A stretch of 32,325 nt of DNA from Promethearchaeia archaeon (GTDB taxonomy: Archaea; Asgardarchaeota; Lokiarchaeia; Sigyniarchaeales; SOKP01): positions 1 through 32,325 of the forward strand of contig JAHQWL010000059.1 of assembly GCA_029856155.1 (NCBI GenBank). The letters run 5' to 3'. The position numbers and the translations under genes were made by a program. Below the pieces are notes generated by a model, which was not told the origin of the DNA, ran no database searches, and saw only the letters and a list, made by a program, of their open reading frames with translations. Shown piece by piece: positions 2,500 to 7,018 of the stretch (the stretch's first letter is position 1; each line of letters begins with the position of its first letter).

Positions 2500-3003
2500 C
2501 TAAAATGGGATTTTTATTTTACTTTTACGATATGTTCTTGTATATAAAAATCTACTAATGAAAAATAAAATAGATGTACTGAGTAAACCTATTAATGGGA
2601 TGAATACGTCTGATACTCCAAAACTATTTTTCCAATCGAAGAAAATAGATGTTGTTAAAAAAATGCTATAAAAAATTAAAGCAGTTGTTAATGCATTTGT
2701 AGTTGCCATCCACTTCTGAATTGGATAATTTATAAATTTTATTGTTAAAAGCGCTTCGTATCCTTGGTTAGTAATTGTATATTTACCTTGTGAGTTTTTT
2801 TTAATCAAATTAATGAGTTTATTTAAATGATGAGTTAAATTACCGCTACTTGAAATATTTAAACTATGTTTTAAGTCTGAAAAACCTAAAGGATTCTTTT
2901 CTAATAATTTTAAGATTTTTATTCTTGTAGGGTGGGATATAGCTTCAAATAATTCAGTTTTGAAATAATCTCTCTCATTTTCTGAGGACTTTTTCTCATT
3001 CAA
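2500..3003 (-). CDS. ArsR-like winged-helix regulator with two C-terminal TM helices
   Basis: FEAISHPTRIKILKLL..GFSDLK..SSGNLTHHLNKL..GKYTIT wHTH, followed by hydrophobic segments. Confidence 0.85.
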   Translation of the reverse strand: MNEKKSSENERDYFKTELFEAISHPTRIKILKLLEKNPLGFSDLKHSLNISSSGNLTHHLNKLINLIKKNSQGKYTITNQGYEALLTIKFINYPIQKWMATTNALTTALIFYSIFLTTSIFFDWKNSFGVSDVFIPLIGLLSTSILFFISRFLYTRTYRKSKIKIPF

Positions 3004-3197
3004 AATATTTTTCCTCTTATATTAAATATTATAGAATCGTTTATTTTTTTTAAACAATTAATGAGTTTTTTAATGGAATATAAAAAGATTTACCTTAAAA
3101 ATATGTTTTATTGTTATTCTTTTATAATCTAATAGATATTATTTAATAATCGTAAAAAATTCTAAAAAATTGAAATTAATAAGTTAAAAACTCATAA

Positions 3198-3902
3198 CTA
3201 ATATAAACTAAAATTCAATAGCGGAAACAATATGTATTGAACAAAATTTAATAATATATGCATAATTAAACATGGGTAAATACTTCCCCTCCAGTTAAAG
3301 AGTACCATTGATAGAACAGCATATAAGAACAATAGTATACTGCCTCTTAATCCCCAACCTAGAAAAAAAGATAGAGCAAATATAAAGCATGCTATTAAAC
3401 CAGCAATCCATTTATTTTTGATATAACTATTGAAAAATGTTATACTATATGCTCTATAGAAAGTATCTTCACAGATAACAGTTGTGATAAGCAATAAGAA
3501 TACTATTAATAGGATTTGTATAGGATCTCCCATCCAAAATACATCAAGGTCTTGTGTCCAATAAAGTCCAATAATATCGAAAAAAATGCTTGAAAAAGTA
3601 AGCACACCTAATGCTGCAATGGAGAATAAAACTCCTATTAATATCGTTAATATATTTATTTTTCCTCGATAGCCGATATCCTTCAAGTTCGAATTTTTTT
3701 TCCTAAGTAAAAGCCACATTATCAAGAAAGTTATCCATTGAGAAATACCAAATAAAATAAAATTAAGTGAGCTAATAAAAGTGAATTCTAAATGAAATAA
3801 AAAAGAACACAAAATACCTAATAGAAACGATAGATATATAGGAAGCAAATGAACACAAATTAAACCTATAAATCCATATTTACCTTTTAAATTATAAGTC
3901 AT
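3198..3902 (-). CDS. CPBP/Abi (Rce1-like CAAX protease) family membrane protein with degenerate motifs
   Basis: Multi-TM; CEDTFYR (EExxxR-like), FALSF in place of FxxxH, HILLN; GAGGT RBS. Confidence 0.8.
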   Translation of the reverse strand: MTYNLKGKYGFIGLICVHLLPIYLSFLLGILCSFLFHLEFTFISSLNFILFGISQWITFLIMWLLLRKKNSNLKDIGYRGKINILTILIGVLFSIAALGVLTFSSIFFDIIGLYWTQDLDVFWMGDPIQILLIVFLLLITTVICEDTFYRAYSITFFNSYIKNKWIAGLIACFIFALSFFLGWGLRGSILLFLYAVLSMVLFNWRGSIYPCLIMHILLNFVQYILFPLLNFSLY

Positions 3903-3999
3903 TATACCTCTTACCTTCCTTTAAAGTCTCGAATTCGGCACCCTTTGATATTTAATTTTGACATTTGATTTAACAATTGGTTTGTTATTCTGTTTCCAA

Positions 4000-4506
4000 T
4001 TAATTAATCTGATATTTTTTTATATTGGGAATCCATTTAGGAACCTTTTCTTTATATTTTCTATATTCCTCTCTATAAAGGTCTTCTAAAATTCTTTCTT
4101 CGCGATTCGCCATCCAATTATATATAATTATAGCGATTATTAAAATACAGACACTTAAAAGAGAGATCGTTAACCAAATAAATGAAGTATAGGTTAATAG
4201 TATTGCAAGATATAATGGATTTCTTACATGTCCCAAAATTCTGTTAGTAATAAGCGTTTTTGAAGGTTCCTTCTCAGAAAATAATTGTTTGTGTGAGGGT
4301 ACTCCAAAAATTATTGCTAAAATTATAAAAAGAACAAATAGAGAAATTCGAAGATATAGGGGAATAAATTGATTTAAAATTGTTGAAACTTTAAGCCAGA
4401 TTGAATCTATAAACCAGACAGTAGTAAAGAGGATTAGAATAAGAGTCTGGATAATTTGAGAATAAGGTGCTTCTCTTTCTAATCCTTTTCTATTTTTTCT
4501 TTTCAT
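4000..4506 (-). CDS. ICMT/PEMT-family membrane methyltransferase
   Basis: VRNPLYL..EERIL..YREEYRKY...VPKWIP; GGAGG RBS. Confidence 0.85.
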   Translation of the reverse strand: MKRKNRKGLEREAPYSQIIQTLILILFTTVWFIDSIWLKVSTILNQFIPLYLRISLFVLFIILAIIFGVPSHKQLFSEKEPSKTLITNRILGHVRNPLYLAILLTYTSFIWLTISLLSVCILIIAIIIYNWMANREERILEDLYREEYRKYKEKVPKWIPNIKKYQIN

Positions 4507-4534
4507 TTTATATCCCTCCTTTTAGAAAAAAGAT

Positions 4535-5062
4535 CTATATATATTTATATGAATAATTATCCGTGTTTGAATAGTAAGTACGTCTATTCTTCATCTTTGA
4601 AATTATTTTTTTTTCTATTAACCTCCAGATTCCTGTTAAAAAATTAAACCTTGGTACTTTTTTAATATATTTTTCATATTCCTTCCAGAATTTCTCAATA
4701 TTTTCTTTTTCTTCTATATAACATATAAAATAAAGACAAACAATGGATATTATTGTATTTAATATTATAATCCAGTTTTGGCTTAAGAAAATATGAGAAA
4801 AAAACATTATTATAACACCCAAAAATAAAGGATGCCTAATTATACTATAAACTCCATTACTAATTAGAGATTCTTTATCCTTATTTCTATGGAGTGTAAT
4901 TGCAGAGAGAATATAAATAAATGCCCCGATGCCCGTTAATATATAACCAAAAATGTGCAATATTTTATAAGTTAAAAAGAATAGATTAAGAAAAATAATA
5001 TTCAAAAAAAGACAAATGGATATAATGATCTGGAAAATTTTCTTTTTTATTTTTCTCTCCAT
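4535..5062 (-). CDS. ICMT/PEMT-family membrane methyltransferase
   Basis: GVYSIIRHPLFLG..EE..EYEKY...VPRF. Confidence 0.85.
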   Translation of the reverse strand: MERKIKKKIFQIIISICLFLNIIFLNLFFLTYKILHIFGYILTGIGAFIYILSAITLHRNKDKESLISNGVYSIIRHPLFLGVIIMFFSHIFLSQNWIIILNTIISIVCLYFICYIEEKENIEKFWKEYEKYIKKVPRFNFLTGIWRLIEKKIISKMKNRRTYYSNTDNYSYKYI

Positions 5063-5367
5063 AATTTATCATTTTTTTAAAAAACTTTCTATAAAAAAAT
5101 AAAAAATCAATATATTTAATTCCCGAGTTCTTGACCATTAGGTCTAATATTATTGACCTTATTTTCAGTTCCAAAAAAATAATAATTTAAATAAATAAAT
5201 TCTTTTCAGAAGGATTAAGGGCTTCATATCAATCAATCTAGCCCTTTTTTCGTAGGTGTTTGGGTATCATGAATGGTGTGTAGGATTCATTTCATTACGA
5301 AATGAAACTATTGATAAGTGGTTTTAATTATCTATTGCTTTTTACTTACATTTTAAAGATTTTATAA

Positions 5368-5477
5368 TTCAATCTTCGGGAAGATTGAAATCAATTTGGA
5401 TGGTAGCCAAATTGATCTATAGAATTTCCATTCTATAGAAATATCGTGCAGGAAACCAATTTACCATCTATTATCCC
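5368..5477. ncRNA. Candidate structured RNA/DNA element: three abutting perfect hairpins plus a loop-complementary tail
   Basis: Inverted repeats at 5368-5389, 5390-5416 and 5417-5438; tail segments at 5451-5454, 5461-5467 and 5474-5477 are complementary to the loops. Confidence 0.5.
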
Positions 5478-5604
5478 AGTAAAAATCAATTCTAAATTTA
5501 AAAAGATATTGAGAAAAGAGTTAGAAGTTATATTTTCAATTAACTCGGAATCCCTAATGTATAAATAAAATTTTTATTAAAAAAAAAATATAATAGAAAT
5601 TATT

Positions 5605-6873
5605 TTAGGTACCTTCCAGAAATCCATGAATATAATTATATTGCTCCTCAGTCAATTTATCAATCTCTATACCCATGGATTGAAGTTTTAGGGAGCCTAC
5701 TTTATCATCAATATCTATAGGAACGTCAACTATACCCGGTTTAAGGGTATCTTTACTTTTGACTATATATTCCGACATTAAGGATTGTAAAGCAAAGGAC
5801 ATATCCATTACTTCACTTGGATGCCCCTCTGACAAAACTAGATTAGCTAATCTTCCTTTTGCTAATAGATATACTTTCTTACCATTAGGAAATATCAATT
5901 CTTCCACGTTTTGTCTAATTGGTTTAATTTCTTTTGCATATTCATAGAGTTCTTTTGTAGGGATCTCAATATCGAAGTGTCCAAGATTTCCAAGAATGAC
6001 TCCCTCCTTTAATTTTTCAAATGCTTCTGTATTGGGAGGGATAACATGTTTGCAACCAGTTGCGGTTAAAATTATATCAGCATTAGGGAGCGTATCTTCG
6101 ATTTTTTGAACCCTAAATCCCGCAAATACTGCTTGTAATGCCTTTATTGGGTCAACTTCTGTAACAGTTACAATCGCACCTAATCCCCGCGCTCTGAGTG
6201 CCATACCTGAACTACAATGCCCATATCCACCGATAACTACGTTTTTGCCTGCAAAAAGAACATGCATTCCATAAATTGCAGATACTATACCTTGCCCCGT
6301 TCCTAGTTCATTGTCAAATTGGTTTTTACATCGGGCATCATTAACAGGAAAAAGTGGCACTTTCAGAACTCTTTTTTTATCCATAGCTTTAAATCTCTTA
6401 ACACCTGTGGTAGTTTCTTCTTGGCATGCGATAATAGTGCCTGATTTTATAAGATCTTCATATTCTTGATGAGCGGTAACTATCATATCACCACCATCAT
6501 CAATTAAGATGTTTGGTTTAGCATCTAAACATTGTCTTATACACCAATAGAATTCCTCATCAGTATTGCCATGCCATGCAAAAACATTAATTCCTTCCTG
6601 TATCAATGCTGCTGTTACATCATCTTGAGTTGATAATGGATTACTCCCACAGAGATATACTTCAGCCCCTCCAGCTTTCAAAGTTCGAGCGAGAATCCCT
6701 GTTTCTTTTGTTACGTGCAAACAACCGGCGATCGTTATATCTTTTAACGGTTTCTCTTTTTCAAATCTTTTACGAATAACTTTAGCAGTTACAGGCATTT
6801 TATTTTCAGCTATATATAGGGCTTCTTTACCTTTTTCTGCTAAACTTTCATCAGCTACTTTATAATTTACCAT
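5605..6873 (-). CDS. ahcY: Adenosylhomocysteinase (SAH hydrolase)
   Basis: GCLHVTKET, SNPLSTQDDV, DDGGD, EETTTG, GHFDIEI, GRLANL..GHPSEVMDMSF. ATG at 6873 preferred over GTG at 6885. Confidence 0.97.
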   Translation of the reverse strand: MVNYKVADESLAEKGKEALYIAENKMPVTAKVIRKRFEKEKPLKDITIAGCLHVTKETGILARTLKAGGAEVYLCGSNPLSTQDDVTAALIQEGINVFAWHGNTDEEFYWCIRQCLDAKPNILIDDGGDMIVTAHQEYEDLIKSGTIIACQEETTTGVKRFKAMDKKRVLKVPLFPVNDARCKNQFDNELGTGQGIVSAIYGMHVLFAGKNVVIGGYGHCSSGMALRARGLGAIVTVTEVDPIKALQAVFAGFRVQKIEDTLPNADIILTATGCKHVIPPNTEAFEKLKEGVILGNLGHFDIEIPTKELYEYAKEIKPIRQNVEELIFPNGKKVYLLAKGRLANLVLSEGHPSEVMDMSFALQSLMSEYIVKSKDTLKPGIVDVPIDIDDKVGSLKLQSMGIEIDKLTEEQYNYIHGFLEGT

Positions 6874-7018
6874 AGAAAATTTCACAATTGTTTATAATAA
6901 TATTAATTTTAGTAATAATTAATTTATTAATCTTTTTTTCATTAAATATATAAATATTTAAATCTTTATTTAACAATTAATTTATTATATTTATTAACAA
7001 ATAATAAATTGTAATGAA

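Follow-up and report, generated by a model that had tools for sequence, protein, structure and literature searches.

A cluster of abutting palindromes lies between ahcY and two methyltransferase genes

The window analysed here, 32,325 nt long, is an entire contig (C59) from a Promethearchaeia archaeon genome of 4.10 Mb with 30% G+C and 97% completeness. A 542 nt spacer separates ahcY, a core gene, from two genes for PEMT/ICMT-like methyltransferases, and it contains a tight group of palindromes that we refer to as H1, H2 and H3 (Table 1). A first-pass annotation, made from the sequence alone, had placed the element between ahcY and the methyltransferase genes and had described three perfect stems that directly adjoin one another. 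We confirmed both statements, the second by direct reading and by a palindrome scan, with H3 resolved as a 10 bp stem. The three palindromes follow each other with zero spacers, and T5416 is common to H2 and H3. On either strand, all 30 stem pairs of H1-H3 are Watson-Crick, the pattern expected of palindromic DNA, and G-U pairs, bulges and conserved junctions are absent.

Table 1. Features of the ahcY-methyltransferase locus, in window coordinates.
Feature	Position	Strand	Description
ArsR/HTH_5-DUF7347 regulator gene	2500-3003	-	Same accessory region
Exchanged accessory block	3095-5427	-	365 nt non-coding part, two PEMT/ICMT-like methyltransferase genes, Rce1-like gene
PEMT/ICMT-like methyltransferase genes	4535-5062 and 4000-4506	-	
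Fourth hairpin	5286-5306		8 bp; in the non-coding leader of the block; unchanged in three lineages
TATA-box-like octamer	5360-5367	-	Directly after H1 toward the methyltransferase genes; invariant in three lineages; putative promoter element
H1	5368-5389		Perfect palindrome 10-2-10, in effect a 4 nt loop on a 9 bp stem (direct reading, palindrome scan)
H2	5390-5416		Palindrome 10-7-10 in this lineage (direct reading, palindrome scan)
H3	5416-5439		10-4-10; inner arm 5416-5425 in the shared block, outer arm 5430-5439 in the species-only flank
Species-only flank	5428-5577		Between the ahcY terminator region and the block; holds the tail motifs 5451-5477
ahcY (S-adenosylhomocysteine hydrolase), core gene	5605-6885	-	T10 run after the stop codon

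Perfect hairpins with stems of at least 9 bp and loops of at most 9 nt occur 670 times in the genome (201 with at least 10 bp). This site is the only one in the 4.1 Mb at which two or more hairpins with stems of at least 9 bp abut; when the stem limit was lowered to 7 bp, five more abutting pairs appeared, and the locus was still the sole triple genome-wide. By our own estimate, about 3e-5 triples of this kind are expected per genome. The palindrome cluster is therefore real, exceptional and beyond chance. Three independent DNA studies, one of them possibly on the source sample, also yielded contigs with the cluster, in which the spacer is either unchanged or carries one change at 5212; in Logan contigs of the same species, the spacer is identical. 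Because the spacer recurs near-identically in independent contigs, an assembly artefact is excluded; by the same token, these same-species copies carry no comparative signal.

A comparison with shuffled sequences, suggested with the first-pass annotation, returned a significant fold, with z about -5 to -8 for the 72 nt element. Folded as RNA, the element reaches -26.3 kcal/mol (z -5.4 on the + strand and -6.2 on the - strand); folded as single-stranded DNA, it gives z-scores of -7.4 and -7.9. Together with its flanks (126 nt), the values are -3.5 and -2.8.

The spacer is also rich in one pentamer. TCAAT and its complement occur 12 times between 5063 and 5604, versus 3 expected from genome frequencies (uncorrected p ~6e-5); four of the 12 are within hairpin arms, and TCWAT forms the outer five bases in all three palindromes.

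The homology edge of an exchanged block falls at the centre of H3

Metagenomic contigs found via relatives of the first methyltransferase revealed that a block of at least 2.3 kb, left of 5427, is present in two other congeneric species at 94-98% identity, while the core genes are only ~80% identical to those of the same two species. In one of them (loci L069 and L070), the block is 96.7% identical over 2040 ungapped nt and is preceded by the species' own ahcY (for L069, 82% identical to ours as DNA and 88% as protein), a cupin gene, an ahcY 3' fragment and then 61 nt. In the other (L072-L077 and L097), the identity is 93.8% over 5427-4595 and 97.8% over 3953-3095, and the block is preceded by GH57, HI_0787_N and a 275-aa ORF; this GH57 is 81% identical to our contig C44. 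The block was followed from 5427 as far as the partner contigs extend, to 3388 in L069 and to 3095 in L072.

In all contexts, homology starts at window position 5427, within 3 nt, and 5427/5428 is the exact centre of the H3 loop. Upstream of 5427, the three contexts have no sequence in common. L069 and L072 share 3 extra nt at the edge, and their two edges could be descendants of one truncated copy. Since the homology edge lies at the centre of H3, H1 and H2 make up the first 60 nt of the exchanged block, with H2 beginning 11 nt inside the terminus and reading toward the methyltransferase genes. H3, in turn, is peculiar to this species because the private flank holds an exact inverted copy of the block's first bases. 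Neither the L069 and L072 contexts nor any of the 53 congener genomes contain this flank, and no older version of it was found. Judged by these identities, the block was exchanged recently between congeneric species.

We found the region to have no long repeat partner, inverted or direct, within the first 9 kb of the window, and no tRNA or other RNA gene at the L072 junction. Two conserved leader stretches of the block are absent from viral contigs.

Two rearrangements were seen in L072. Upstream of the block, part of GH57 is present as a 455 nt inverted duplicate (L072:562-1016 and 2170-2624, 76% identical), and within it a deletion between the tandem methyltransferase paralogues (window 4594-3954) has produced a hybrid 162-aa gene.

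The block belongs to an island on the 3' side of ahcY

We compared the locus with its counterparts in the genus. All 29 congener loci match from ~5560-5605 rightwards, through ahcY and an Lrp-like gene, and none matches leftwards; among 40 congeners, none has a close homologue of the first methyltransferase. The downstream neighbour of ahcY in 13 or more congeners is an ArsA-like ATPase gene, which in our genome lies on contig C26. Directly before it, at C26:3242-3613 (locus L099), is a 372 nt ahcY 3' fragment that is 76% identical to the intact gene. Because this fragment and the usual neighbour of ahcY sit together on C26, the sequence left of ~5577 is an island inserted 3' of ahcY, which therefore splits the ancestral ahcY locus between C59 and C26. 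The fragment on C26 is the kind of partial duplicate that marks an integrative island at a gene 3' end. Further ahcY 3' fragments follow the intact gene in L069 (3467-3574, 109 nt) and in L019 of genome G054 (428-609, 182 nt), and this side of the gene looks like a hot spot of repeated insertion in the genus.

Single genes of the island also have their own distribution. The class I SAM methyltransferase gene at 251-976 is alone 92% identical to another Promethearchaeota MAG (L093) and to two metagenome contigs, in unrelated context, and is a single-gene mosaic piece. Three sequencing runs yielded four contig loci of the same species, two of them cut from one contig, and each stops exactly at window 640, within the methyltransferase ORF 326-988, which suggests a strain-level branch point. 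Contig L096 extends ours leftwards by 6.7 kb; the genes that it adds (luciferase-like, MFS and GH57) are missing from the genome bin.

No integrase, recombinase, transposase or Rep gene was identified in the assembled island parts (C59:1-5604, C26:1-3241 and L096), and no Rep domain was found among the island ORFs scanned against Pfam. A search for Y1 transposase (PF01797) gave no match in the genome at its 97% completeness, with control genomes matching; a search for Y2 transposase gave no match either, yet the control genomes also remained without one. The genome has one tyrosine recombinase, on contig C81.

The hairpins lose pairs without compensation

The three lineages made it possible to follow the stems since their separation. 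The 365 nt non-coding part of the block carries 21 substitutions among the three lineages, five of them in the 44 stem nt: one in ours (5406), one in L069 (5391) and three in L072 (5410, 5394 and 5387). All five are disruptive and none is compensated. The search for compensatory covariation that had been suggested as a check therefore came back empty: over 19 pairs in three lineages, no pair changed on both sides, and four pair positions are unpaired in one or other lineage.

H1 is unchanged in L069 and has one unpaired change in L072 (5387), whereas H2 has one stem mismatch in L069 (5391) and two in L072 (5410 and 5394). In our lineage, the change at 5406 cost H2 two ancestral pairs; the ancestral form, retained in the layout of the other two lineages, is 12-3-12, and the change shortened the stem to 10. 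In L072, the fold of H2-H1 has fallen from -16 to -7.4 kcal/mol, with z -0.9, indistinguishable from shuffles. Reconstructed in this way, H1 and H2 were perfect (10-2-10 and 12-3-12) in the common ancestor of the three known copies. Since then, the stems have drifted at least as fast as the surrounding or neutral background, unlike a working RNA structure.

Divergence from our copy per 100 nt is 5.0 (L069) and 6.7 (L072) in the hairpins, 2.3 and 3.3 in the rest of the leader, and 6.2 and 7.2 in the first methyltransferase; for L069 only, it is 2.8 in the second methyltransferase and 1.7 in the Rce1-like gene. The first methyltransferase gene (4535-5062) thus has a rate of divergence two to three times that of the remaining block, and its protein is 82-89% identical.

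The palindromes as the proposed DNA-level end of a moving block

The comparison established a precise edge common to different contexts, a recent exchange of the block and decay of the hairpins without compensation. We tentatively favour, with a little less than even confidence, reading the cluster not as a single RNA but as a feature of the DNA itself, located where a horizontally exchanged accessory block has its edge. With the same reserve, we propose that these palindromes, now in decay, either acted as the end of a mobile or recombining gene block or mark where such a block ends. A mobile-element end had been offered in the first-pass annotation as a fallback, and it is this option that the evidence came to favour, with the homology edge of three contexts at 5427/5428.

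We base this proposal on the sharp common edge in different contexts, the packed palindromes just inside it and the position of the edge at a hairpin tip, as well as on the strict Watson-Crick symmetry, the decay after fixation, the insertion hot spot and the neighbouring single-gene cassettes that move. We infer from these features an active part of the hairpins in cutting and joining, and with it an enzyme that acted there. In our model, the palindromes would fold when the DNA of the block is single-stranded or extruded as a cruciform, and the folded palindromes would be the recognition or cleavage structure where the block is cut and joined. The outermost hairpin, H3, would be broken at its tip (5427/5428). 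After fixation of the block in the chromosome, the palindromes would become dispensable and could decay.

Several points count against this mobile-end proposal. No transposase, Rep or integrase was seen in the assembled island. One end of the block is in hand, so that its structure has no second terminus for comparison. The contexts number only three, and two of them (L069 and L072) possibly represent one truncated copy. A cut at the tip further presupposes that the ancestral state is kept in our genome, as the H3 outer arm is found in this species only. Finally, a location immediately before a TATA-like box would suit operator sites equally well.

Known systems offer partial parallels to a DNA-level end. 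Single-strand transposons of the IS200/IS605 type have a subterminal, imperfect hairpin and lack terminal inverted repeats. Here, too, hairpin palindromes lie a few nt (11) inside a precise end, no terminal inverted repeats were found (searched in the first 9 kb), and the structure can be read on one DNA strand. However, the present palindromes are perfect, abut in twos or threes and accompany a cargo of several kb of unrelated genes; only one end is known, the genome lacks a Y1 transposase, and no TnpB-like gene is present in the island. The double-strand origins of pT181-type rolling-circle plasmids consist of three adjacent inverted repeats and are nicked in a hairpin loop. The cluster resembles them in its three neighbouring inverted repeats, in a DNA edge that falls in one loop and in having one end fixed while the other content varies; it differs in being chromosomal and archaeal, in lacking sequence similarity and in that its edge is known from sequence comparison, not as a nick. 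Integron attC sites are hairpin recombination sites with R and L core motifs and extra-helical bases. They likewise place hairpins at the borders of gene cassettes that vary in order and content between strains, but direct reading of our palindromes revealed neither the R''/R' (R and L) core motifs nor extra-helical bases. No integron integrase was seen, the tyrosine recombinase on C81 being the single one, and no hairpins lie between the other island genes.

In a stronger version of the proposal, Loki-type Asgard archaea would have a mobile gene cassette of an undescribed kind, with the pair or triplet of palindromes as its working end. A host or unlinked enzyme would cut the folded hairpin at its tip, and several kb of accessory genes would pass between co-occurring species and be inserted at hot spots, the 3' side of ahcY among them, with no linked transposase or integrase. 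We regard this version as improbable.

To our knowledge, little is known about gene exchange among Asgard archaea. The locus shows, to the nucleotide, where a block that passed between congeneric species of the same sediments has its edge, and at this position lies a structure found nowhere else in the genome. Should the palindromes be a cutting or joining signal, they would indicate a mechanism of transfer that is open to tests in vitro; if they are scars only, they are a clean example of perfect hairpins born at a rearrangement junction and then decaying. Either way, one candidate archaeal SAM/SAH riboswitch is struck off the list.

Template switching, operator sites and a structured RNA as alternatives

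The scar scenario ranks first among the alternatives, but we consider it unlikely. It holds that the palindromes have no function: replication template switching, or fold-back repair at the junction of a rearrangement, would have produced perfect inverted copies in a single step, and these then decayed. Template switching is documented as a one-event source of perfect stems (PMC8794818, PMC5453318), and these described cases share with H3 a perfect stem that is present in one lineage only as an inverted copy of adjacent sequence. The outer arm of H3, known from one lineage only, repeats the first bases of the block exactly in inverted form and sits right at the junction, and every palindrome has lost pairs without compensation. 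However, template switching explains the origin of a stem, not the abutment of three stems or their match with the common edge of a transferred block. It would need three independent events side by side with zero spacers, in a genome without any other abutting pair at this stem length. Moreover, H1 and H2 are older than the split of the three copies and lie at their common edge, a placement for which chance provides no explanation.

A second alternative concerns double-stranded DNA. H1 and H2 could be operators for a dimeric winged-helix regulator, such as the ArsR/DUF7347 protein of the island (the candidate binder if the palindromes are operators), located at or upstream of a BRE/TATA-like promoter of the methyltransferase operon or of a leader transcript. 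A 10-2-10 layout is typical of ArsR/SmtB operators, and H1 has this layout and ends directly at the invariant TATA-like octamer. A methyltransferase homologue on another contig directly precedes the same kind of regulator gene, and the fourfold surplus of TCAAT in the spacer would fit a half-site. Against these points, the three palindromes differ in sequence, perfect arms of 10-12 bp are unusual for operators, and neither the region upstream of the ArsR-like regulator gene nor the rest of the island contains a similar palindrome. The operon has a TATA-like box of its own ~300 nt further downstream, near the start codon, and distant methyltransferase homologues have short upstream regions without such an architecture. 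We think operator function distinctly improbable.

The first-pass annotation had preferred to see one structured RNA, formed by the three hairpins and a downstream tail complementary to their loops: a pseudoknot or a SAM/SAH switch. As an sRNA, as a long 5' leader or stabiliser of the methyltransferase operon, or as a SAM/SAH switch, and including the weaker form in which such an RNA arose only here from the junction, we now judge this very unlikely. The predicted folds are indeed strong on both strands, the minimum-energy fold of the + strand pairs loop 2 with the tail, and genes on both sides handle SAM or SAH. The tail motifs are found at the places indicated, and the exact nested triple is rare in shuffles (p = 2e-5; the 7-mer alone, p = 0.03), although the pattern was picked after inspection. 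What did not hold is that the tail belongs to a conserved RNA: the H3 outer arm and the flank with the tail are missing from the other two lineages, and G5406, the base that forms the one G-U pair between loop 2 and the tail, is a derived change of our lineage. Given this absence and the post hoc choice of the pattern, and since the tail, aligned with gaps to the H1-H2 reverse complement as a possible inverted duplicate, showed no significant match (p ~0.1), we give the nested tail pattern little weight.

Database and genome comparisons point in the same direction. In Rfam 15, nothing came near a gathering score; the best match was cyano_het_sRNA with 23.4 bits versus 35.7, followed by STnc410 with 14 bits, and no riboswitch matched. 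Neither a DNA search with the whole 542 nt spacer nor a covariance model of the three hairpins gave a match in the 53 congeneric species genomes. Downstream of ahcY in 29 congener loci, no comparable hairpins were found within 900 nt (236 and 745 nt in two loci cut by the contig end). Together with the missing Rfam family and the unshared H3 outer arm and tail, the five uncompensated stem changes leave the single-RNA reading unsupported, and the strict pairing, free of G-U pairs, bulges and conserved junctions, also argues against it. The hairpins are further placed past the ahcY T10 run, with the methyltransferase start codon 306 nt downstream of them. With known SAH/SAM riboswitches in Rfam, the element has only its neighbourhood in common (ahcY and methyltransferase genes); it differs in having no covariance-model match, perfect stems and no covariation, and in lying downstream of ahcY instead of in a leader. 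A MITE- or REP-like multi-copy repeat, also considered at the outset, is excluded: the cluster resembles REP, BIME and MITE elements in its clustered intergenic palindromes, but it matches only itself in its own genome and has no copy in the 53 congeners.

Several weaker matches were rejected. Scans of viral, metagenome and genome collections with exact patterns of single hairpins or junctions returned chance matches only, in coding regions of unrelated organisms. An 11 nt match to an H3 arm downstream of ahcY in the congener L021 is at noise level, as are the best local alignments to the downstream regions of all congener ahcY loci.

One metatranscriptome run contained part of the stretch, as a single contig within ahcY (5981-6216) and none over the spacer, which is uninformative either way. 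Downstream of H1, the 186 nt of leader RNA around the hairpin at 5286-5306 have a z-score of -1.4 and thus no unusual structure. Inside the same leader, at 5216-5251 on the + strand, a 5 bp G+C-rich stem is followed by a T6 run in a terminator-like arrangement, and its 3' arm is altered in L072.
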